Positions 1,169-60,684 of a stretch of 64,000 nt of DNA are shown here, in pieces. The stretch lies in IMG/VR virus record IMGVR_UViG_3300009285_001861. One strand, 5' to 3'. Each line of letters opens with the position of its first letter. Within the stretch, counting starts at the first letter, position 1. This stretch comes from an uncultured virus (IMG/VR IMGVR_UViG_3300009285_001861) (taxonomy: Duplodnaviria > Heunggongvirae > Uroviricota > Caudoviricetes). The notes beneath the pieces were generated by a model. That model saw only the letters and a program-made list of their open reading frames with translations. It did not search any database and had not been told where the DNA came from. The position numbers and the translations under genes are program-made.

Positions 1169-1816
1169 ATGTCAAGAACATGGACCGACACTCAGCTAAT
1201 TCAGGCCGTAACCACGAAGTTTTCCATGTCAGAGGTGCTGAGGGAATTGGGGCTTTACCCCAATAGCAGTAATGCGAAGACTATCCAAACGCATATGGGG
1301 CGCTTAGGGTTAAAGTCCGAGCATTGGGCGGTACACTTCAAGAAATGGTCAGAGGAACAACTCACACGGGCCGTGGCTACCCAATTTACCATGGCCATGG
1401 TCTTAAGGGAATTGGGGTTGTCCCCTGTTGGGGGGAACTACAAGACCATTCGGCAACATATTCTCCGGTTGGGTTTGAGTACCACGCACTGGACAGGACA
1501 GGGACACTTGAAGGGGAAAACCCACTCGTGGTCAGTTAAGATGCCATTGTCAGAGTTATTGGTTGAGAATAGCACCTATGGGACCAACCACCTTAGTAAA
1601 CGTCTTGTCAAAGAGGGAGTACTAAGATATGAATGCTCTGACCCGGACTGCCTTTTGACCACATGGAAGGGGAAGCCAATTTCCTTGCACCTAGACCACA
1701 AGAATGGGGTCCCCACGGACCATCGCCTGGAAAACCTGAGGTTACTGTGCCCCAACTGCCACTCACAGACTCCCACGTACTGTGGAAAAAATATAGGTGG
1801 CCCTACCGGGACTTGA
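1169..1816 (+). CDS. Free-standing HNH homing endonuclease
   Basis: LHLDHKNG...NLRLLCPNCHSQT HNH motif; two N-terminal repeats; 3' end overlaps tRNA-Leu antisense. Confidence 0.9.
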   Translation: MSRTWTDTQLIQAVTTKFSMSEVLRELGLYPNSSNAKTIQTHMGRLGLKSEHWAVHFKKWSEEQLTRAVATQFTMAMVLRELGLSPVGGNYKTIRQHILRLGLSTTHWTGQGHLKGKTHSWSVKMPLSELLVENSTYGTNHLSKRLVKEGVLRYECSDPDCLLTTWKGKPISLHLDHKNGVPTDHRLENLRLLCPNCHSQTPTYCGKNIGGPTGT

Positions 1817-1880
1817 ACCCGGATGCCTCGCGGCCTCCCGTTTTAAGTGGGAGAATGTCTGCCAATTCCATCACAGGGCC
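1798..1880 (-). tRNA. tRNA-Leu(TAA)
   Basis: Cloverleaf with long variable arm; loop CTTAAAA; A31-C39 mismatch. Confidence 0.9.
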
Positions 1881-1884
1881 GTAG

Positions 1885-1966
1885 TGGGTTATAACGGACT
1901 TGAACCGATACCCCTTGCGGGACACCATTTTGAATGGTGCGTGGCTGCCAATTTCACCAATAACCC
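1885..1966 (-). tRNA. tRNA-Leu(CAA)
   Basis: CACCA-TTCAAAA-TGGTG anticodon arm; long variable arm. Confidence 0.9.
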
Positions 1967-2008
1967 AGGAAATCATTGTTGTTTTAGTCTTCACCTACTT
2001 CCAGCTGT

Positions 2009-2093
2009 TGGTGCGAGAAAGGGGACTTGAACCCCTACACCTTGCGGTACCGGATCCTAAGTCCGGCGCGTCTGCCAATTCCGCCATCCTCGC
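2009..2093 (-). tRNA. tRNA-Leu(TAG)
   Basis: CCGGA-CTTAGGA-TCCGG; encoded CCA. Confidence 0.95.
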
Positions 2094-2112
2094 GAAAACA
2101 TTAAAGAAACAG

Positions 2113-2194
2113 TGCATGAGACAGGGATCGAACCTGCACGTCTTTCGACATAGGACTCTCATTCCTACGTGGCTACCAGTTACACCACTCATGC
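2113..2194 (-). tRNA. tRNA-Leu(GAG)
   Basis: TAGGA-ATGAGAG-TCCTA; long variable arm. Confidence 0.88.
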
Positions 2195-2198
2195 AGAG

Positions 2199-2286
2199 TG
2201 GCCGGGAAGGGCATCGAACCCTCACGGGAAGTTACTCCCACTGGCTTCTGAGACCAGCATGTCTTCCAAAATTCCATCACCCGGCC
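2199..2286 (-). tRNA. tRNA-Leu(CAG)
   Basis: CTGGT-CTCAGAA-GCCAG; long variable arm. Confidence 0.9.
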
Positions 2287-2318
2287 AAGCTACCTACTTG
2301 CTGCCGGGGACCTCAGAC

Positions 2319-2408
2319 CTACGCACGAGTGCATAAATCCACCCCGGCACAGCTAAGCAATAGCTCTAGCTTCAGGCTCGGAATGGAGTTGGTTGCACGA
2401 TCGAACAT
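2319..2408 (-). CDS. Putative Leu-sensing leader peptide MFDRATNSIPSLKLELLLSCAGVDLCTRA
   Basis: 29-codon ORF between promoter and Leu tRNAs; Leu codons CTG, CTA, CTA, TTG, CTT, TTA. Confidence 0.75.
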   Translation of the reverse strand: MFDRATNSIPSLKLELLLSCAGVDLCTRA

Positions 2409-2420
2409 GGTGTCCTGTGT

Positions 2421-2449
2421 AGTCTAAAGACGAATTACCGAGGTGTCAA
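2421..2449 (-). promoter_or_regulatory. sigma70-type promoter of Leu tRNA operon
   Basis: TTGACA-N17-TAGACT. Confidence 0.8.
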
Positions 2450-4204: not shown

Positions 4205-4803
4205 GCCCCGCGGCCCGGAACATCGCTAGGCCATCGACAGGCGGAACGCCAGCTTCAAACTGACGCTTCATTTGGGTAACTGCCTTCAACAGTTCCTCAA
4301 TGCTCATGGTGAGCACAGCTTTTCCTAGTTCGGTGACTTCGTCCTGTGGGTGATGACCCACTTGGCCGACTTGAGCCATACCGTTCTTGTGCCGGTATTC
4401 CCATTTTCGGCCATCCACCGCTATCACGAGATGGAGCTGCTGGATTTGGAAGGAATGGGGCTCTTCAATTGGCGGGGTCTTGGCTGTCATTCCCCTTTTA
4501 CCCCAAGCTAGGGATTTTCGAGGGGAACAATCTGGAGATACTCATCCAGGACTTCCCAGTTCCGCTCGTCATTGTTAGGGGGTGGAGCCACGCTAGGCTG
4601 GTCAGGATGCTTCGGGTCCAGGCAATCGTAGCAAAGTCGGGTGCTTCCAACGGTTGGTGAGATCCCACAACCTGTGCAGTAGTCGAAAATGTCTAGAGTT
4701 GGCGCCATGTTCGTGTACCCCCTGATATTGGGTGTACCATCGGGCGAATACCGCCAAGTGTGGCAACCTGGGACACACTGTATCTTTTCTCCTGGAAACG
4801 GGT

Positions 4804-5421
4804 CTACAGGAGTTCTGCCAAGACGGCCGGATCCGTGTAGAGGGACTTCACCCGAGCTATCCAGGCTTGGCTCTTGAGCTTGAACATGTGAGGAGGATAG
4901 CCCTTTTTGAGGGGGGCCCCCTTACAGACAACTCCCTCGAATGTCATTCCAGGTAGGGTTCCGTCCCAGACCGCTTGGGTGAGGTCCTCGGTGACATTCC
5001 CCATGTAGAGCAGCGGAGCTGTTGGAACATGCCCCTCGAAAGTCTTCACAAATTCCTTGGGCCCCATGAAGCCTCTTCGATGGATCGACACGTCAATTAG
5101 GTCTACCCGGTGCCCCGCTTCCTGGTAGTCGTGGACTCCGGCAAACGAAGAGGGGCCCCAGAACTCGAAGAAACAGGTGGCTTCTCGTTCTCGGAGGGAT
5201 TGGAAGAGGGCTGCAAAAGCTGCCTCTTGGGCCTGAATCAGTGGAAGGGCAAGTTTCCCAATAGGATCCGATAGATCCGTGAGACGGGTCCGGGTGCCGA
5301 ATTTCCAGAATCCTTTCTTGGCCGAAAAATCTGCACGCAAATTGCTGCCATCAAGTTTGTCGAAGACGTAGAAGGGGACTCCATGGATGTGGTCCTTGGA
5401 GATCGACGGATATTGTTTCAT
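4804..5421 (-). CDS. ATP-dependent RNA ligase-family nucleotidyltransferase
   Basis: Motif I KLDGSN, FFEFWG, motif IV EGVVCK, motif V FKLK. Confidence 0.75.
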   Translation of the reverse strand: MKQYPSISKDHIHGVPFYVFDKLDGSNLRADFSAKKGFWKFGTRTRLTDLSDPIGKLALPLIQAQEAAFAALFQSLREREATCFFEFWGPSSFAGVHDYQEAGHRVDLIDVSIHRRGFMGPKEFVKTFEGHVPTAPLLYMGNVTEDLTQAVWDGTLPGMTFEGVVCKGAPLKKGYPPHMFKLKSQAWIARVKSLYTDPAVLAELL

Positions 5422-11500: not shown

Positions 11501-11548
11501 TTACCGGCGGCAGGTCCTATGGGGTCGATGGGGGTTCGTGGTCTTCAT
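11501..11548 (-). CDS. Putative His-sensing internal leader MKTTNPHRPHRTCRR
   Basis: Short ORF directly 5' of tRNA-His; stop inside hairpin CCGCCGG/CCGGCGG. Confidence 0.55.
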   Translation of the reverse strand: MKTTNPHRPHRTCRR

Positions 11549-11763: not shown

Positions 11764-11796
11764 TCAATAACAGTGGTGATGCAGATGCTGGTTCAT
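11764..11796 (-). CDS. Putative His/Cys/Tyr-sensing leader peptide MNQHLHHHCY
   Basis: ATG AAC CAG CAT CTG CAT CAC CAC TGT TAT TGA upstream of Tyr-Cys-His tRNAs. Confidence 0.8.
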   Translation of the reverse strand: MNQHLHHHCY

Positions 11797-13905: not shown

Positions 13906-14001
13906 TTAGGCTGCGGGCGGGGCGGCTGGACCCACGCACGCCACCACGCAAGCGGCTGTCGCCGCTGGTGCTGTGTTGGTGCTGTGGGTCGAGAGGTTCA
14001 T
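13906..14001 (-). CDS. Putative Ala/Pro-sensing leader MNLSTHSTNTAPAATAACVVACVGPAAPPAA
   Basis: 10 Ala + 4 Pro in 31 codons, between promoter and Pro-Ala tRNAs. Confidence 0.78.
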   Translation of the reverse strand: MNLSTHSTNTAPAATAACVVACVGPAAPPAA

Positions 14002-23898: not shown

Positions 23899-25056
23899 TC
23901 AATGACCATCCTTGGCATCCTTGCGTTCAAGGTAGGCGTCCGAGATGTACTTGAGGATCTTGCGGCCCTGGAAGCCAGATGCCAGCTGCTGGCCCTGATA
24001 GAAGTCCACTCTGGTCTCCGGTTCAGAGGTCACAACCACACCTTCCCGGACATGCTTAGCCCCAGGAAGGGTAGAGGCGCCGTCCCGCAATGCCTGGACA
24101 GATTCCTTGTTGAAGGGACCCCGGTATAGGACCGGGACTGTCTGAAGACCCAGGACCTCGGCCACCTTCTCAATGACCTCCCGTCCCTGGTACCGCCCAT
24201 CAACTAGAACGTCGATGATCCGGACCTGCTGCACATTGGCTTCACAGCCATAGGTCAGATCCTGAATGCCACTTCCAAAAAGCTCGGCGAAGATGATGTA
24301 GTGCTCCGTCATCGGCCATGAGCCATTATCGTTCTGGACTAAAGCACGAACCTTGTCCTCAGGAAGGAACTTGGCAGCCGCCAATGAATAGGCATTGGTT
24401 CCCTTGGGGTCCCTGGCCGTGTTGTGGGTTCCCACCATGTAGGTTGGCGTAGCCACCCCATCGGTGACCATGCCATCAACTACCAGGGCCACCCTGAAGT
24501 TGGTTCCATGAATCTTCTCGGTCACACGCACCGGATCCCCTTCCGCAAACACGTCGGGGAAGTTCTTGGCATTCTCGATGTGGGTGTAGGACTGGAATGC
24601 CCCGGGACACCGGATCATGTCTCCAGACATGTTCGAGGGGATCGGTGGCTCATACCGCTCAATCCCAAGAGCCTCTGTCCAGGTCCCCCAATGTCCCCCA
24701 AGAGGGGCAATCTCCACCCCTGTTTCGCCTGGAAGCATACCGGGCAGGGACTCGGGAACCGGGATCAGAAGACCCTGGCTCAACGCACCCCGGAGGCGGA
24801 TTGTCTTGAGCTTGTGTGCAGGGCGACCATTAGAAAGCTTCTTGGTGGCTTTGTCCTTGAGGAAATCAAAGCTGGGAAGCGACACGTCAAGCAGCGCGTC
24901 AATGGCGATGTAGATGCCCTCTCGGACATCCCCCCACTGTTCCGTCTGGGTCACGCACTGCCAATCCATCCCATCAATTGTGGCGATGGACAGCTTGTCC
25001 GCGTTCGGGTGCTTATTGAGGGTGAATTTGACTTGTCGTGCTAGTTCTGTGGCCAT
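23899..25056 (-). CDS. RNA ligase, DRB0094/Rnl5-type
   Basis: HPNADKL, IRLRGALSQGL N-terminal domain; TEKIHGTN motif I; REGVVV motif IV. Confidence 0.9.
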   Translation of the reverse strand: MATELARQVKFTLNKHPNADKLSIATIDGMDWQCVTQTEQWGDVREGIYIAIDALLDVSLPSFDFLKDKATKKLSNGRPAHKLKTIRLRGALSQGLLIPVPESLPGMLPGETGVEIAPLGGHWGTWTEALGIERYEPPIPSNMSGDMIRCPGAFQSYTHIENAKNFPDVFAEGDPVRVTEKIHGTNFRVALVVDGMVTDGVATPTYMVGTHNTARDPKGTNAYSLAAAKFLPEDKVRALVQNDNGSWPMTEHYIIFAELFGSGIQDLTYGCEANVQQVRIIDVLVDGRYQGREVIEKVAEVLGLQTVPVLYRGPFNKESVQALRDGASTLPGAKHVREGVVVTSEPETRVDFYQGQQLASGFQGRKILKYISDAYLERKDAKDGH

Positions 25057-25929: not shown

Positions 25930-26349
25930 TCACTGCTGCTGTTGCTGGGGTTGCTGGCGGGGTTGTAGGGTGACGATCCCTAGCGTAGCGGATTTGGAGT
26001 TCGCACGGTGCCCTGCACCCAACCCCGTAAGGGAGGCATCGGTGCTGCACCAAAGTGGACCAAGGGAATTCATTGAGTGCGCCGGACCTGGATCGAACAG
26101 GTATGTCTCCCTCTTCAGGGGAGTGCATGGACCACCACTGCCACCGACGCGAACGCCAAGGCGCCGCCCGGTAAACTTGTCTGTGGATCCAGTGCTCATA
26201 GTGCGCGAGGCCGGGTACGATCCGGCGACTTCTCGATTATCGGTCGAGTATTCTTCCACTGAATTACCCGCGCATGCTGCGTCAGCTGCCATCGTCGAAG
26301 CGATGGCGCCGGTAATGCACGGGCTAGCAATGTGGAGGGAGGGGTTCAT
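25930..26349 (-). CDS. Leader/read-through ORF spanning tRNA-Ile and tRNA-Phe, ending QPRQQPQQQQQ before Gln tRNAs (internal ATGs at 26199, 26073)
   Basis: 139 open codons starting just after the promoter; Ile x3, Phe, Gln x8 each placed before the cognate tRNA. Confidence 0.7.
   Translation of the reverse strand: MNPSLHIASPCITGAIASTMAADAACAGNSVEEYSTDNREVAGSYPASRTMSTGSTDKFTGRRLGVRVGGSGGPCTPLKRETYLFDPGPAHSMNSLGPLWCSTDASLTGLGAGHRANSKSATLGIVTLQPRQQPQQQQQ
26078..26150 (-). tRNA. tRNA-Phe(GAA)
   Basis: CTCCC-CTGAAGA-GGGAG. Confidence 0.85.
26202..26273 (-). tRNA. tRNA-Ile(GAT)
   Basis: CTCGA-CCGATAA-TCGAG (C33). Confidence 0.85.
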
Positions 26350-27750: not shown

Positions 27751-27807
27751 TTAACCCTTTCGGGTCAATCCGGCGGTACGTGTTCGCGTCGTGGTGAAGA
27801 ATCTCAT
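27751..27807 (-). CDS. Putative Thr-sensing leader MRFFTTTRTRTAGLTRKG
   Basis: 6 Thr codons (ACC, ACG, ACG, ACA, ACC, ACC); stop in hairpin GATTGACCC-GAAA-GGGTTAATC. Confidence 0.8.
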   Translation of the reverse strand: MRFFTTTRTRTAGLTRKG

Positions 27808-35103: not shown

Positions 35104-35517
35104 TCAGACAGATATTCGTCTGAGCCTAGTGCCGGTAGCGGTAACCGAAACCGCGGTGTGCTCCTTATGAGAGAGCAACCCGCCCTGTGTACCGGCATTC
35201 AGCAATGCATCGGTGCACATTCGATTTGAGGTACGAGTAGAGAGGTTCGAACTCCCGACGCGCGGGGCGTAGGCCCGCCGCTCTTCCGCTGAGCTATACT
35301 CGCGTACAAAACCTTGCTGCCCACCGCACGGGTGAGCGGGTCGCACGACGAGACCAGCAGTTGAGGTGTAGTGATTCATGGTGCATGCAGAGAGAATCGA
35401 ACTCTCATTTCGCAGATTAAGAGTCTGGCGACCTGCCGTTGGCCCATGCATGCGTGTTTGCTCCCGAGGTTTTCCCTCGGGGCAACGCTTGAGCATGGAT
35501 GTGGTCAGGTGGTTCAT
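35104..35517 (-). CDS. Leader/read-through ORF spanning tRNA-Lys, Val and CAT, ending AGG CTC AGA CGA ATA before Arg(TCT)/Ile(TAT)
   Basis: 137 open codons from the promoter-proximal ATG; cognate codons in each spacer; internal ATG at 35379. Confidence 0.72.
   Translation of the reverse strand: MNHLTTSMLKRCPEGKPREQTRMHGPTAGRQTLNLRNESSILSACTMNHYTSTAGLVVRPAHPCGGQQGFVREYSSAEERRAYAPRVGSSNLSTRTSNRMCTDALLNAGTQGGLLSHKEHTAVSVTATGTRLRRISV
35130..35196 (-). tRNA. Short tRNA with CAT anticodon (Met or Ile2), reduced D arm
   Basis: 7-bp acceptor, GCTCT-CTCATAA-GGAGC, T arm GCGGT/ACCGC; 67 nt. Confidence 0.65.
35232..35303 (-). tRNA. tRNA-Val(TAC)
   Basis: GCGGG-CCTACGC-CCCGC (C33); A73. Confidence 0.8.
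35379..35453 (-). tRNA. tRNA-Lys(CTT)
   Basis: CAGA-CTCTTAA-TCTG; CCA. Confidence 0.87.
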
Positions 35518-40523: not shown

Positions 40524-41243
40524 TTACTTTGATGTCACTTTCTCATACACTGACGTGAACTTCCTCCCGTGTTTTGAAATTGCGTAGTCCAGATACTCTT
40601 GGATGGATCCCTTGTCGATGACTTTTAGGGGTACGGGGCACTGATCGATCTTGGCTCTCTCCTTCTTGGTCCAAATACCTTTGATCTCAACTAGACTACC
40701 CCCCACAATGAAGTCCGGGTAGTACTTATGTGTCCTACCTTCGTACTCATACTCGTAGCTAACCCTATTCCGTTCGATTGGGACACCATGGTCAATACAG
40801 TGGATGACGAACGCCAGCTCCCAACTACTATCACACCAATATCCCTTATACCAGCCATTCAGACCATGCCCACTCCCCTGCTTGTACCCGGAAGTCCGTA
40901 TCTTATCGAACCTCTCCCGATATTCCTGCTTCGTCTCATCAGATTGGGAAGCCCACCACTTTTTATGGTCTTGTTGGGAGGCACGTTTGGCCAGTATTGC
41001 TTTCTTTTCCGCAGCTCCGACTGCCCCGTACATTTCCTCGTATGTTTTGCCGGTTTGCCAGGGGGTAAACCCTGGGTAGAACCCTCTTCTCCCCCCCTTG
41101 TGGGTTGGCTTACCTTTTTTCTTGGTCGAGTCCCTCTCTCGTTTCCCCGGACAACTGTTTGGGCTTGGGGAACAACACCACTTCCCAGAAGACTTGAATT
41201 GAATACTGGCCTCTTGATCACATCCGAATTCACACTTTGGCAT
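40524..41243 (-). CDS. Putative homing endonuclease (PD-(D/E)xK/TnsA-like domain) inserted in the Ser tRNA cluster
   Basis: DSSWEL...YYPDF...VEIKG motif; N-terminal Cys-rich and basic DNA-binding segment. Confidence 0.75.
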   Translation of the reverse strand: MPKCEFGCDQEASIQFKSSGKWCCSPSPNSCPGKRERDSTKKKGKPTHKGGRRGFYPGFTPWQTGKTYEEMYGAVGAAEKKAILAKRASQQDHKKWWASQSDETKQEYRERFDKIRTSGYKQGSGHGLNGWYKGYWCDSSWELAFVIHCIDHGVPIERNRVSYEYEYEGRTHKYYPDFIVGGSLVEIKGIWTKKERAKIDQCPVPLKVIDKGSIQEYLDYAISKHGRKFTSVYEKVTSK

Positions 41244-41406: not shown

Positions 41407-41574
41407 TTAGGATCGCGAGACTGAGAGACTACTACTCCACCACGTAGACGTGTGTCCTACGCAGCGGGTCGAGTGGGATTCAAACCCACGGACGCTTTTC
41501 AGCGCCTCCACGTTAGCAGTGTGGTGCCTTAGGTCTCTCGGCCACCGACCCAGAGTTGTTTCGAGAAGAGTCAC
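41407..41574 (-). CDS. Putative Ser-sensing leader ORF reading through tRNA-Ser(GCT), ending TSTWWSSSLSVSRS
   Basis: TCT, AGT x3, TCA, TCG, TCC in spacer; stop TAA in loop of GCGATCC/GGATCGC hairpin; GTG start uncertain. Confidence 0.55.
   Translation of the reverse strand: MTLLETTLGRWPRDLRHHTANVEALKSVRGFESHSTRCVGHTSTWWSSSLSVSRS
41465..41551 (-). tRNA. tRNA-Ser(GCT)
   Basis: CCACA-CTGCTAA-CGTGG (A31-C39); long variable arm. Confidence 0.87.
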
Positions 41575-46629: not shown

Positions 46630-47043
46630 ATGAAGATCACCGTTGTGGCCCCCAATGAGCCCGACAGACTTGGACCCTCGGTCCCACCTTTTCGATACCA
46701 TCTGGACGCTGTTGTGGCCTACATGTTGGCACATGGGCGCCCAAGAATCCGTCTGGTCCAATTCTCTGAGACGGTGTATTGGGCTGTTGAGGGCAGCCAT
46801 CGGCTTGCCGCTGCCCAGGAACTTGGGCTAATCCCCGAGTTTGTGGTGATGACCGGAAAATTCCTTACTTCTCAAGAATACGGGAATGACTATAACGCTT
46901 GGGGGGAAGACCACTTAGTGACCCCCAAGGAGTTTATCTTCAATGTAGGCCGTCCCAGTGGCAGGTCCTACGAATTCGATGCCTCTGTTCTTGTTGCCAG
47001 ATCCCCAAAGACCTGTAGTGGAGCCGAAGCCCCATGCCAGTGA
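46630..47043 (+). CDS. ParB/sulfiredoxin-like domain protein
   Basis: AVEGSHRLAAAQELG. Confidence 0.55.
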   Translation: MKITVVAPNEPDRLGPSVPPFRYHLDAVVAYMLAHGRPRIRLVQFSETVYWAVEGSHRLAAAQELGLIPEFVVMTGKFLTSQEYGNDYNAWGEDHLVTPKEFIFNVGRPSGRSYEFDASVLVARSPKTCSGAEAPCQ

Positions 47044-47750
47044 AGTGCTACGTCCCTAGCTGTTCCTCACCGGCAGGCCCCGGGATGGGCCCTTGGGTGC
47101 CCTTCTGTGCCAAGCACTGGTTCGCCTGCCCCTGGGAAGTCCGGGAGCCCCTGTTCCGCTTCTACCGGGCACCACCTGCCAGCAAAGAGGATGATTGGGA
47201 GAACCCCTTGCAGGATTCTTGGGTGGGTGCAGTAATGACTGCCCTTGTTGAGCTTGGCGTCAAGATACGGATCCTTCTATTGGACATCGATGGGGTCCTA
47301 AATTCCCACGGACATTGGGCCCGCCGTAGCCCAGAGCTACGGGCCATTGAAGAAGCCAGCGTGATCCGGGGCGGTACCGACCCAGCCTGTATGGCGCATC
47401 TCAATGAGATCGTGTCCAGGACCAGTTGCTTGGTTGTTCTCAGCAGCACAATCCGAAGGTTCGAGACCTTGGAAGACCTCCAGAGTCACTTCAACCAATA
47501 TGGGTTCGTGGGGACGTTATTGGACCGCACCCCCTACATCAACGAGAGCCGGTGTAGGGGGCGGGAAATTGACATGTGGTTGAAGGCCCATCCCGAGGTG
47601 GCATCTTTTGCCATCTTGGACGATGAGGGGGACATGGATCCCCACCTGGACAAGTGGGTCAAGACCAGCATGCACAAGGAGGGACTGGAACGGGGGCATA
47701 TCGAGAGGGTATGTACCCTACTTGGAGTTCCCGCCGTTCCCGTCAAGTAG
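47034..47750 (+). CDS. HAD-domain protein (Swiss Army Knife RNA-repair type)
   Basis: LDIDGVLN, VLSST, RGREI..WL, FAILDD. Confidence 0.85.
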   Translation: MPVKCYVPSCSSPAGPGMGPWVPFCAKHWFACPWEVREPLFRFYRAPPASKEDDWENPLQDSWVGAVMTALVELGVKIRILLLDIDGVLNSHGHWARRSPELRAIEEASVIRGGTDPACMAHLNEIVSRTSCLVVLSSTIRRFETLEDLQSHFNQYGFVGTLLDRTPYINESRCRGREIDMWLKAHPEVASFAILDDEGDMDPHLDKWVKTSMHKEGLERGHIERVCTLLGVPAVPVK

Positions 47751-48108: not shown

Positions 48109-48918
48109 CTATACCCGTACATGGCGATCATTTCGCCTCCCCACACGTCTAGATTTGATTCCCGGTCTTACCTGGGAGGAGGGGGCCAGTCGCGTCACAT
48201 ATCGAAGCTGATTCTTGTTCTCGGAGACAAACTGAAACGCATCTGCATAGTGCTCCATTTCCTCGTCTTGTCGGAGTTCCTCGATGGCCCGACGAATCCT
48301 GTGTCTAACGAAACCCTGGGAGACGTTCAGCCCATGGATGGCATTCAACTGCCGGGCTACCTCTGTCTGGCAGGTTGTCTCATACAATAGAGCCAGAATC
48401 CACCCGTCTATTGGGTCCTTGAAAAATCCCCCGAGCTTTTCCTTGTCCTTCAGAGAAAGTTTGGGGACCTGTATGGCGTACTCAAGTCGTTCAAGTGCCC
48501 TAAAGAGTCGGTAATGGATTGAGGGTTGGGAGATGCCGAAGTATTCGGCCATGGCCGCTTGCTTGACCGGCTGGAAGAAGTACATGTCAATCATCTCCGC
48601 CTCATCCTGAGGAATGAGCTTCAGAGCTTTCTTGACCTTCTGCCACAGTTCCCGGTCCCCCGTATTGGCCGGTAGGTAACCGGCTTGGGACATGAGGGCT
48701 CGAATGATGGGGTTTCCAGGGATCCCGAGGAACTCCCCCCAATCCTCCCATTGTCCCTTGTATGCCTCCTCTGGTTTGATTGGCATATCCTTTAGGGCAC
48801 CGGAACGGACAAGACCCTGATAGGTGTTTCGATGGGATAGCTTGACGGATAGGACAATCCGTTTGGCCTTAGAGTAAGAGATGAACTTCTTTTTTGGCAC
48901 AGGGGATGTTACCCTCAT
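48109..48918 (-). CDS. DNA-binding regulator with two sigma70 region-4-like HTHs and an N-terminal integrase-repeat-like unit
   Basis: QAAMAEYFGISQPSIHYRLFRALERL; second VSQGFVRHR; PIKPEEAYKGQWEDWGEFLG. Confidence 0.65.
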   Translation of the reverse strand: MRVTSPVPKKKFISYSKAKRIVLSVKLSHRNTYQGLVRSGALKDMPIKPEEAYKGQWEDWGEFLGIPGNPIIRALMSQAGYLPANTGDRELWQKVKKALKLIPQDEAEMIDMYFFQPVKQAAMAEYFGISQPSIHYRLFRALERLEYAIQVPKLSLKDKEKLGGFFKDPIDGWILALLYETTCQTEVARQLNAIHGLNVSQGFVRHRIRRAIEELRQDEEMEHYADAFQFVSENKNQLRYVTRLAPSSQVRPGIKSRRVGRRNDRHVRV

Positions 48919-49423: not shown

Positions 49424-49534
49424 TCAGGTGGTTGGCCTAATACGCCGTCGTCGCTGCACACGCCCGCAACCTCGCGCCAGCGTTCCGCCGTCACGTCCGT
49501 GGGTTGTCGTCTTGGTGTACATCGAGAAGCTCAT
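49424..49534 (-). CDS. Putative Arg/Gly-sensing leader MSFSMYTKTTTHGRDGGTLARGCGRVQRRRRIRPTT
   Basis: 8 Arg (CGT, CGA, CGG, AGG) + 5 Gly codons in 36. Confidence 0.78.
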   Translation of the reverse strand: MSFSMYTKTTTHGRDGGTLARGCGRVQRRRRIRPTT

Positions 49535-58514: not shown

Positions 58515-58571
58515 TTATGTGCGTTCGGAATCCGATTCGCGCTCTCGCTCTGATGTCGTGTAGGAGTTCAT
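58515..58571 (-). CDS. Putative Glu/Asp-sensing leader MNSYTTSERERESDSERT
   Basis: GAG, GAG, GAA, GAT, GAA; stop at apex of ACGCAC/GTGCGT hairpin. Confidence 0.78.
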   Translation of the reverse strand: MNSYTTSERERESDSERT

Positions 58572-59352: not shown

Positions 59353-60438
59353 ATGTTCCCACTATACACCCCTGAAGCGTTCCAGGCAGCAAAATCTTTC
59401 ACCTTACTACCCCTGAAGTGTCAACAGTGCCCCACCACCATCTATCGGACCAAGAAGGCTCTTAAGTACGCAATCCTGAAAGGCAAGGAGAAATTCTTTT
59501 GCCCCAAGTGCCTTCCCCAATCCCAGGTGTCATCCATCGAGGTAGCCTGCCTGACTTGCGGGGTCAAGTTCTTGAAGCGGGCATCCCAATGTAAGAAAAC
59601 CCCCAATCACTTTTGTAGTCGGTCCTGTGCAGTGAAGACCAACAATGTCAAGACCCCCAAGAGGAAGGTTGAGGGCTCCTGTCGAACCTGTCAGAAGCCT
59701 ACACATACCAAAGACCGGTATTGCTCGGATTCCTGTAAGGAGGTGGCCCGTCAAATCTGGGAGGCGGAACGGGAGCTAGAGTGGCAGAAGCCCCCCGTCA
59801 AGGTCAAGGGACCCCGTAAGCCTAGGGCGAGTAGTGGATACAAGAAGATTGGAAGGTCCCCAGCACAAAAGCGGGAGGACGGGAAGGCAGGGGTTGTGGC
59901 CTGGAGGCAACGCACCAAGCTCAAAGCCATTGAGTACAAGGGAGGATGCTGCCAAACATGCGGGTACCGGAAATGTGTATGGGCTCTCTCTTTCCACCAT
60001 GTGGACCCCTCACAGAAGGACTTTGGCATTGGTGGTCGGAATCTTAAGTCCTGGGCCCGTATTCAGGTGGAGTTGGACAAGTGTGTCCTAATTTGTAGTA
60101 ACTGTCATGCAGAAGTCCATGATGCCCTGGACAGCACCCCTGATGCTAAGGCCCATTGGAGGAAACGCCTCAAGATTAAGGCCATTGAGTACAAAGGAGG
60201 TCATTGTTGCCTTTGCGGGTACCACAACTGCAACAGGGCATTGAGTTTTCACCATTTGGACCCGTCCCAAAAGGACTTCAACATCTCCAGGGTTAGTAGA
60301 ACCTGGGAAAGCATACAACCGGAGTTGGATAAGTGTGTCCTACTCTGCATGAACTGCCATGGGGAAGTTCATGCTGGCACTGCTATTTTAGACTCGATGG
60401 TAGACCGTACTGGAATCGAACCAGTTTCTACGGGTTAA
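59353..60438 (+). CDS. Free-standing homing endonuclease with two tandem HNH domains
   Basis: Two copies of KAIEYKGG.C..CGY...LSFHH.DPSQKDF...ELDKCVL.C.NCH.EVH; N-terminal FCSRSC/YCSDSC zinc fingers. Confidence 0.9.
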   Translation: MFPLYTPEAFQAAKSFTLLPLKCQQCPTTIYRTKKALKYAILKGKEKFFCPKCLPQSQVSSIEVACLTCGVKFLKRASQCKKTPNHFCSRSCAVKTNNVKTPKRKVEGSCRTCQKPTHTKDRYCSDSCKEVARQIWEAERELEWQKPPVKVKGPRKPRASSGYKKIGRSPAQKREDGKAGVVAWRQRTKLKAIEYKGGCCQTCGYRKCVWALSFHHVDPSQKDFGIGGRNLKSWARIQVELDKCVLICSNCHAEVHDALDSTPDAKAHWRKRLKIKAIEYKGGHCCLCGYHNCNRALSFHHLDPSQKDFNISRVSRTWESIQPELDKCVLLCMNCHGEVHAGTAILDSMVDRTGIEPVSTG

Positions 60439-60472
60439 AAGCCACGCTGCCCAACCAATAGGCCAACGGTCC
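60398..60472 (-). tRNA. tRNA-Lys(TTT)
   Basis: Loop CTTTTAA; bulged anticodon stem; CCA. Confidence 0.82.
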
Positions 60473-60633: not shown

Positions 60634-60684
60634 CTAGGCGTTGGCGTTCCGATTCAGTGTTCCAGGTTTCAAGAGGGCGTACAT
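60634..60684 (-). CDS. Putative Asn/Lys-sensing leader MYALLKPGTLNRNANA
   Basis: AAA, AAT, AAC, AAC; stop at apex of GCCAACGC/GCGTTGGC hairpin. Confidence 0.72.
   Translation of the reverse strand: MYALLKPGTLNRNANA

Follow-up and report, generated by a model that had tools for sequence, protein, structure and literature searches.

Leader reading frames matching the anticodons of their tRNA operons in an uncultured jumbo phage: a predicted ribosome-mediated control of viral tRNA supply

The stretch of DNA analysed here (the window) comprises 64,000 nucleotides (nt) of IMG/VR record IMGVR_UViG_3300009285_001861, which belongs to an uncultured jumbo phage (G000) whose genome is a single 485,040-bp contig with 55% GC. 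The window holds 36 transfer RNA (tRNA) genes, all on the minus strand and largely grouped by amino acid. Nearly every cluster follows a sigma70-like promoter, a start codon about 10-20 nt further on and an open reading frame (ORF) rich in the amino acids of that cluster. These leaders cover the anticodons of their own operons completely, though not exclusively. They appear to be a real, conserved and statistically strong feature, in which leader-peptide control seems to be applied to viral tRNA operons with a design at the level of the anticodon. We consider it probable, at roughly two chances in three, that each tRNA operon is under ribosome-mediated feedback, in which slow decoding of the leader codons would turn on the matching set of tRNAs.

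The Leu operon and its leader

The Leu operon consists of the following features; its five tRNA genes were each identified by a tRNA caller and by Rfam family RF00005.

2421..2449, minus strand: sigma70-type promoter-like site (-35 at 2449-2444, -10 at 2426-2421; 10/12 consensus positions, 17-nt spacer)
2319..2408, minus strand: Leu leader ORF of 29 codons, six of them Leu, with all five Leu anticodons covered
2342..2349, minus strand: segment B, in ORF codons 20-23, the 5' arm of an 8-bp helix; it resembles the 5' acceptor strand of tRNA-Leu(CAG)
2302..2309, minus strand: segment C, in the spacer; its partner in folding models is either B or the 5' end of tRNA-Leu(CAG)
2287..2318, minus strand: spacer of 32 nt, the 3' arm of a long ORF-to-spacer hairpin, with no U tract
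2198..2286, minus strand: tRNA-Leu(CAG)
2112..2194, minus strand: tRNA-Leu(GAG)
2009..2093, minus strand: tRNA-Leu(TAG)
1884..1966, minus strand: tRNA-Leu(CAA)
1796..1880, minus strand: tRNA-Leu(TAA)

The original prediction, made from the sequence of this region, held that the leader contains the codons CTG, CTA, CTA, TTG, CTT and TTA, and that these fully cover the downstream CAG, GAG, TAG, CAA and TAA tRNAs. Both statements were borne out: the six codons lie at positions 12, 14, 16, 17, 18 and 25 of the ORF, in that order, and no anticodon of the operon is without a strictly pairing codon. TTA and CTA had also been described as rare in GC-rich DNA; as they make up 2.5% and 10%, respectively, of the Leu codons in the coding usage of the phage, this is correct for TTA, while CTA is only moderately rare. 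The chance of finding five classes among six Leu codons was 0.019 when phage coding usage served as the null, 0.074 with the third-base composition of the leader and 0.092 with uniform usage, and with p values of 0.019-0.092 the Leu leader on its own is only suggestive.

A leader segment had further been said to pair just before the first tRNA. An 8-bp inverted repeat does exist (2349-2342 / 2309-2302), 15 nt upstream of the first tRNA and as the core of a longer helix; a perfect repeat of this length was seen in 154 of 2000 shuffles, which makes it weak evidence when taken alone, and a role in the output is not established by it. For the whole Leu hairpin the comparison with shuffles gave z scores of -1.7, -2.05 or -3.5, depending on the boundaries. 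No Rfam family other than tRNA was matched in the window, nor was there any match at E <= 10 in 2280-2470. One 8-nt word is shared, on the minus strand, by the spacers before tRNA-Leu(CAG) (2302-2287) and before tRNA-Leu(CAA) (about 2001-1990).

Contigs of sequencing run X11, possibly the source sample, showed zero differences over 1700-2610, and a 151-nt contig of run X14, from a separate study, was identical to 2200-2350; the sequence of the Leu operon is therefore not an assembly error. A short related contig in run X13 had 4 differences over 2230-2363. The phage collection returned only an identical record and no diverged homologue of the Leu-only operon, and a metagenome scan for such an operon (55 loci) returned two identical copies and again no diverged homologue. 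Conservation of the Leu codons was therefore tested on the Pro-Arg-Leu leaders of relatives.

Leader codons match operon anticodons

The correspondence between leaders and operons was examined in a blind test, in which only the 150 nt upstream of operon starts were used, amino-acid labels were permuted, and neither promoter nor ORF was chosen. In this phage the test gave a z of 4.9 (p <= 5e-5), and the operon's own amino-acid set ranked first at 7 of the 12 starts; the remaining five were Met, two Ser blocks and two read-through operons with control codons in internal spacers. Cognate triplets were concentrated in the ATG frame, with 65 against 27 and 25 in the other frames of this phage and 328 against 129 and 126 in 32 leaders from six records, which argues for translation of the leaders.

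Coverage was scored for the same 32 leaders as the presence of a strictly pairing leader codon for each anticodon, conditional on the number of codons for that amino acid. In this phage (ten leaders) all 28 informative anticodons were covered, when 21.8-23.1 were expected under three nulls (p 1e-4, 6e-4 and 1.7e-3). Without the Leu leader the count was 23/23 (p 0.003-0.017), and without the three leaders that read through tRNA genes it was 18/18. The five relatives gave 25/25, 15/15, 7/7, 30/31 and 26/27, or 103/105 together, so that 131 of 133 anticodons were covered over the six records; taken singly, G007 and G008 were not significant under all nulls. In these counts the CAT-anticodon tRNAs of G006 and G033 are assumed to be readers of AUA. 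The test left out the Met, second His, internal Gly and internal Lys ORFs of this phage, and the His-Phe, Thr-Asp-Val, Ile-Met and Ile-Tyr blocks of G006. In the converse test, which asked if leader codons are limited to those read by the operon, this phage gave 24/47 against about 20 expected (p 0.10-0.16), and significance was reached only in G006 (24/32, p <= 0.0004) and G034 (22/34, p <= 0.012).

The choice among synonymous codons follows the content of the operon in several cases. Leu TTR codons are found only where tRNA-Leu(CAA) and tRNA-Leu(TAA) are in the operon: they make up 4/10 in the Pro-Arg-Leu leader of G033, and 0/22 in G006, G008 and G034, where the operons have neither tRNA. 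GGG is present in the Ser-Arg-Gly-Ala leader of G007 and G034, together with tRNA-Gly(CCC), and is missing from that of G006 and G033; the Gly codons of the leader in this phage include GGG with no tRNA-Gly(CCC) in the operon. AGA is found in leaders whose operons have Arg(TCT), but not in the other Arg leader of this phage, and ATA precedes tRNA-Ile(TAT) in G034 and the CAT-anticodon tRNAs in G006 and G033, in records where ATA is 3-6% of Ile codons. The diversity of Leu codons in homologues, on which the original prediction had staked its interpretation, thus held up both in the coverage of the relatives and in the way TTR codons follow the operon. Its further claim of sensing at the isoacceptor level is supported as far as the codons match the anticodons and follow operon content; as a single leader with all codons would be an OR gate that amino-acid starvation trips too, the level of sensing itself can only be inferred.

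Leader structure and the output step

A long hairpin joins the 3' half of the ORF to the spacer, and in 29 of the 32 leaders this fold is more stable than in shuffles (mean z -2.8; Leu -3.5). The preferred partner of a spacer is its own ORF, with 10 of 27 falling in the top decile (Fisher p 0.002), and for the Leu spacer its own ORF was the best among the tested leaders of other amino acids (quantile 0.031). Segment C was not more specific for its own tRNA than controls were (quantile 0.17). In most leaders of this phage the helices end at or near the 5' boundary of the tRNA. In four Glu leaders an 11-bp helix between ORF and spacer is invariant across a variable loop, with a segment shared between possible alternative pairings, and two helices are common to three Pro-Arg-Leu leaders. 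A Rho loading site of the tnaC type would be unstructured and C-rich; most leaders have more C than G in their first 40 nt, yet the region is structured. Shine-Dalgarno signals before the leaders are weak. U runs precede some of the other first tRNAs, but internal tRNAs as well.

In the folding model of the Leu leader, a ribosome masked on codons 12-16 or 25 would allow the acceptor stem of the first tRNA to form, and with no ribosome, or with one at the stop codon or on codons 17-18, the stem would be captured. Sequestration of the first tRNA was considered as a general output and was dropped, having failed both the shuffle and the foreign-tRNA controls. An extended codon-anticodon pairing was likewise rejected: an A following the cognate triplet, which would pair with U33, is depleted (49/328 vs 152/626).

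Leaders followed by GC hairpins with U runs were found before the Phe-Ser-Cys, Lys and Met-Thr blocks of G027, a distant AT-rich relative with a capsid protein 52% identical, and before tRNA blocks of the AT-rich G030. These classical-looking attenuators lie at L222 15435-15650 and 1726-1930 (minus strand), L137 7290-7475 (plus strand) and L224 9370-9550 (plus strand). A terminator scan was positive at one of the three G027 sites, the other two having larger loops and being visible by eye. All three Ser codons of the G027 Phe-Ser-Cys leader are AGY, fitting tRNA-Ser(GCT), and the leader of the Lys block pairs strictly with 5 of 12 tRNAs only.

Other leaders of the phage

Thirty-four of the tRNA genes in the window were called by ARAGORN at the default score, and Trp and Asn were added at a lower threshold. 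Their clusters are Leu x5; Tyr-Cys-His; Pro-Ala; Ile-Phe-Trp-Gln x2; Thr x3; Lys-Val-Arg; Ser x4; Arg x3-Gly x2; Glu-Asp-Glu; Asn-Lys; and Met. Besides the Leu leader, the following leaders were recognised.

11764..11796, minus strand: Tyr-Cys-His operon; of the 9 codons that follow the start, 6 stand for His, Cys or Tyr, in the reverse order of the tRNAs
11501..11548, minus strand: second, internal leader before tRNA-His, with two His codons; excluded from the statistics
13906..14001, minus strand: Pro-Ala operon; 14 of 30 codons are Ala or Pro
25930..26349, minus strand: 139-codon leader running in frame through tRNA-Ile, -Phe and -Trp; each of these is preceded by a spacer with its cognate codon, and the two tRNA-Gln genes by a run of Gln
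27751..27807, minus strand: Thr operon of three genes; 6 Thr codons, all three anticodons covered
35104..35517, minus strand: 137-codon leader running in frame through tRNA-Lys(CTT) and tRNA-Val(TAC), with AGG, AGA and ATA at its end before tRNA-Arg(TCT)
41407..41574, minus strand: GTG-started leader running through tRNA-Ser(GCT); 7 Ser codons outside the tRNA, all four Ser anticodons covered
49424..49534, minus strand: Arg3-Gly2 operon; 8/8 Arg codons read by operon tRNAs, no AGA
58515..58571, minus strand: Glu-Asp-Glu operon
60634..60684, minus strand: Asn-Lys operon; another mini-ORF, containing a single AAA codon, is at 60523-60473

Three of these leaders run in frame through tRNA genes and carry cognate codons in the spacer before each tRNA. 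In leader-bearing records, ATG frames that enter a tRNA contain its amino acid 43 times when 20 are expected (33 frames, p 0.0002), while five control records gave 41 against 33.6 (40 frames, p 0.12); this enrichment suggests that ribosomes may act directly on the pre-tRNA at these sites. As 43 of 108 tRNA-gene frames are free of stop codons, read-through alone is unremarkable.

Several further elements were noticed next to these leaders. Between tRNA-Val and tRNA-Arg(TCT), at about 35120-35200 (minus strand), lies a tRNA-like element with a CAT anticodon loop that ARAGORN and Rfam missed; its fold has acceptor-, anticodon- and T-like stems, and given the ATA codon in the same leader it may be an AUA-reading tRNA-Ile or a relic of one. 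The tRNA at 60398-60472 (minus strand) has an 8-nt anticodon loop and is probably Lys(TTT); the AAA mini-ORF precedes it, and look-alikes of that mini-ORF stand before tRNA-Lys(TTT) in G001 and G005, records otherwise without leaders. An ATG-containing hairpin at 61059-60982 (minus strand) precedes tRNA-Met(CAT), its frame enters the tRNA, and control here is possibly by the rate of initiation. An endonuclease-like ORF (PF05367, weak; 40527-41243, minus strand) interrupts the Ser operon, yet the two Ser anticodons beyond it are also covered by the leader. A second such neighbour, an HNH endonuclease ORF (PF13392, weak; 1169-1816, plus strand), converges on the Leu operon, its 3' end overlapping that of tRNA-Leu(TAA).

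Distribution among relatives

The tRNA regions of relatives were gathered by way of the capsid protein, an RNA ligase and a motif of the Glu leader; the scan for that motif returned 80 loci, 5 of them with tRNAs. The capsid protein of this phage has a weak match to PF05065 and shares 48% identity with its counterpart in Tunturiibacter phage Tunturi_5 and 37% with the one in Bacillus phage G; among viral contigs it has 490 relatives, the best 80 at 89-100% identity. In G006 (619 kb), G007, G008, G033 (497 kb) and G034 the capsid proteins are 89-92% identical, the operons are differently composed, and the leaders match the compositions of their own operons. G035 is apparently the same phage as G033.

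The blind test was positive in G006 (z 3.7), G033 (z 3.1), G034 (z 2.7) and G007 (z 2.4), and also in G028 (L231-L233; p 0.001), G029 (L225-L226; p 0.017) and G003 (L102; p 0.009). It was null in G001, G005, G009, G011, G023, G024, G026, G027 and G030, and G008 and G010 had too few units for it. The signals of G028, G029 and G003 come without obvious promoter-leader units, and G028 has no capsid homologue. G001 and G005 are close relatives with one large tRNA array; in the single large arrays of L101, L102 and L103 (G001, G003 and G005) a conserved motif of some 20 nt, an element of another kind, recurs from spacer to spacer within hairpins. In a clade-free scan for a promoter followed by tRNA-Leu, 55 loci were found, 45 of them distinct; in nine tRNA-Leu was the first tRNA called, and one of these had a Leu-rich ORF. 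The feature is thus patchy within the phage group and uncommon among phage tRNA-Leu loci generally (1/9). The one locus with a Leu-rich ORF, on the unrelated viral contig L299, shows a promoter and a 28-codon ORF with 6 Leu codons, followed by tRNA-Leu(TAA).

In G006, G033 and G034 (L374, L375 and L376) a gene for EF-Tu lies among the Pro-Arg-Leu-Tyr tRNA genes. The end of an ORF lies inside the Ala tRNAs of G033 (L240, about 4800-4935), and we take it to resemble ribosomal protein L7/L12. Both may be co-regulated with the tRNAs.

Genome context and host signals

The phage RNA polymerase beta subunit, Rho and RNase III were each found in 0 of the 5 records searched, and host factors would then have to execute the output. 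An enzyme of the CCA-adding type is present in 4 of the 5 and was not found in this phage. Hints about the host conflict: the best named matches of the G033 EF-Tu include Myxococcota, while the NAD synthetase of this phage (window 32864-33733) points to Bacillota. An assignment by capsid matches was tried and gave eight unrelated genome bins, which were uninformative. The phage also encodes a sigma70 region-4 protein (window 48112-48918) and an RNA repair kit of RNA ligases, a HAD phosphatase, RtcB and a 2'-5' ligase (window 4807-5421, 23902-25056 and 47034-47747; L006:5865-7028 and L013:10514-12004). Outside the window, at G000:C1:222464-222540 (minus strand), there is a low-score tRNA call with a stop-reading anticodon (TTA).

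Proposed mechanism and alternative explanations

Promoter, ORF, in-frame cognate codons, coverage of anticodons, conservation and leader-spacer hairpin are shown by the sequence and the statistics; from them we infer the translation of the leaders, the direction of the response and its polar output. In the proposed scheme, host RNA polymerase would start at the sigma70-type promoter of a tRNA operon, and a ribosome would translate the short leader, made of the codons that the downstream tRNAs read. Where a control codon is decoded slowly, its tRNA being scarce, cleaved or uncharged, the ribosome would linger on the leader and alter the leader-spacer pairing so that the operon is switched on; when translation is fast or absent, it would be shut down. 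Because the leader holds a codon for each operon anticodon, it would work as an OR gate responding to the loss of a single isoacceptor. The leaders also cover distal tRNAs several kb downstream, in G033 beyond the EF-Tu gene, and for this reason the output is presumably polar. Most likely it would be premature termination of transcription, Rho- or hairpin-dependent in this phage and intrinsic in the AT-rich relative.

Individual tRNA species are targets of cleavage by hosts, and tRNA supplied by phages rescues infection in a promoter-dependent manner (PMC11555353, excerpt). From excerpts of that source, PMC10264068 and PMC7824862, together with the RNA ligases and RtcB encoded here, a role against tRNA-cleaving host defences may be proposed, and making a tRNA should relieve the loss of a tRNA more directly than the lack of an amino acid. 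Extended to the whole phage, the leaders could form a closed-loop surveillance of host decoding, with about ten translated probes testing every anticodon that the phage can supply. Loss of one isoacceptor by nuclease or decay would switch on the replacement set; in this GC-rich lineage the switch would do without an intrinsic terminator, and ribosomes would partly translate through the tRNA genes. This wider picture is tentative, and we rate it at somewhat less than even odds.

A number of observations weigh against ribosome-mediated feedback or limit the support for it. There is no intrinsic terminator, i.e. no GC hairpin with a U tract, between the Leu leader and the first tRNA. The Leu folding model is not clean, as it yields the fold that captures the tRNA for stalls on codons 17-18 just as for a ribosome at the stop. 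Pairing of leaders into the first tRNA was not above shuffles overall, spacers were not specifically complementary to their own tRNA when compared with foreign-tRNA controls (Fisher p 0.43 and 0.77), and the conserved Glu and Pro-Arg-Leu helices show little compensatory change, their alignments being too shallow for covariation. Leaders and operon ends were chosen by us from promoter and start codon, some by eye; the omitted Ile-Tyr leader of G006, which has Tyr but no Ile codon and is followed by tRNA-Ile(AAT), would be a miss; the leaders of relatives are homologous and hence not independent tests; and leader codons are not confined to operon anticodons in this phage, G033 and G007. Close relatives (G001, G005, G009, G011 and G024) gave no blind-test signal, so the phage group can do without leaders. 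In two RNA runs the best share of the words of the stretch was 0.04, and in Actinobacteria changing the cognate codons was without effect in the leaders of ilvB and leuA (PMC1262725, excerpt).

An attenuation at the amino-acid level with hedged codons would sense starvation or slow translation, the synonymous spread covering whichever isoacceptor loses its charge first. Selective-charging theory, which ties the sensitive codon to the host tRNA pool (PMC1183508, excerpt), fits such a design, as do the 23 of 47 leader codons in this phage that operon tRNAs leave unread under strict pairing and the conflicting host signals of the G033 EF-Tu and the NAD synthetase of this phage. We regard it as unlikely all the same, since hedging predicts all synonymous classes regardless of the operon, whereas TTR, GGG, AGA and ATA follow operon content and codon precision is significant in G006 and G034; moreover, known amino-acid attenuators prefer one codon in tandem (PMC1183508, excerpt), and extra tRNA would presumably help little against the lack of an amino acid. 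A less likely variant keeps the same sensor and moves the output past transcription, the position of the ribosome deciding between folding of the first tRNA with cutting by RNase P, and misfolding or overrun with degradation. Segment C, which in the model pairs with B or with the tRNA 5' strand so that stalls on codons 12-16 or 25 restore the acceptor stem, agrees with this, and so do the helices ending near the tRNA boundary, the three leaders that run through tRNA genes and the enrichment of tRNA-entering frames for their own amino acid. The two controls detected no special spacer-tRNA or leader-tRNA pairing, however, stop-free frames are common in tRNA genes anyway, and distal tRNAs, whose codons the leader also holds, would be hard to control in this way.

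It is improbable that translation plays no part and that the leader pairs with anticodons directly, in cis or in the manner of a T-box, or has its origin in tRNA sequence. The order of codons often reverses that of the tRNAs (negative rank correlation in 18 of 29 leaders), as nested pairing requires, and Shine-Dalgarno signals are weak; the Leu order is not reversed (rho +0.7), though, the signal is restricted to the ATG frame, A is depleted after cognate triplets, and neither a T-box nor any other non-tRNA Rfam family was matched in the searches given above. Chance or a non-functional relic, for which the p of 0.02-0.09 of the Leu case alone and the relatives without signal might speak, is very improbable in view of the genome-wide permutation, the conservation in five further records whose operons are laid out differently and the single Leu-rich ORF at the nine unrelated phage loci where tRNA-Leu comes first after a promoter. 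Ribosome-mediated feedback on the tRNA operons remains the reading that we prefer.

Significance and comparison with known systems

Why phages carry tRNAs is described as a long-open question (PMC10264068 and PMC11025619, excerpts). A leader that names the controlled tRNAs codon by codon would mean that supply is regulated by demand, and the competing ideas of codon compensation, amino-acid starvation and post-cleavage replacement become directly testable with a 250-nt reporter. Through such leaders ribosome-mediated attenuation, so far a matter of enzymes and of cells, would reach tRNA genes and viruses, and natural in vivo sensors of single-isoacceptor availability would be at hand. No description of leader-peptide control of tRNA genes was found in the literature searched, outside of which lay supplements and most subscription journals; the main texts of PMC7162821, PMC7824862, PMC11555353 and PMC13015707 contain neither 'leader' nor 'attenuat', excerpts of PMC11025619 do not mention such control, and excerpts of PMC2965389 do not mention phages.

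The leader-peptide attenuators of Escherichia coli and Salmonella (leuL, thrL, ilvL, hisL, trpL and pheL) resemble the present leaders in having a promoter and a short ORF of cognate codons; they switch by alternative RNA pairing, which the folding model of the Leu leader would allow here too, and multivalent ones exist among them (thr, ilv). They control enzymes, whereas the targets here are viral tRNA genes, in about ten operons that form a regulon. Their sensor logic is described in PMC1183508 (excerpt), according to which the Salmonella leu attenuator has three CUA codons, one sensitive codon in tandem; here the codons are spread over all anticodon classes. The leaders of this phage probably work like a classical attenuator, but since classical ones end in a U-tract terminator and the Leu leader has none, they do not belong to that family in this phage.

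The pheM-pheST system of Escherichia coli is an attenuator in which the supply of charged tRNA feeds back on a gene of the translation machinery. The leuS and trpS attenuators predicted in Streptomyces (PMC1262725, excerpt) are alike in this respect; both kinds control synthetases, i.e. charging, for one amino acid each, whereas here the product is the tRNA itself. The actinobacterial cys leaders, the LEU element and the Rho-dependent tnaC type share with our leaders a cognate-codon ORF with no intrinsic terminator, and in the LEU element the partner of the Leu run is the 5' signal of the gene that follows (PMC1262725, excerpt). Those leaders precede mRNAs, and for some of them a change of codons is ineffective; here a pre-tRNA lies downstream, with no ribosome-binding site to hide. 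Neither the Rfam Leu_leader family nor the actinobacterial LEU element was matched, and the downstream genes are tRNAs, not leuA. T-box riboswitches also sense the charging of one tRNA via a codon, but no T-box fold is present here, and the codons are in a reading frame and many per leader. In tRNA-based counter-defence, phage tRNAs replace host tRNAs lost to nucleases, as with the T5-like tRNA-Tyr against retron-Eco7 and tRNA-Lys against PrrC (PMC11555353; hypothesis in PMC10264068; excerpts), and RNA ligases and RtcB are encoded in this phage too. The phage tRNA supply described so far uses a strong promoter (PMC11555353, excerpt), whereas here the supply looks gated by demand.

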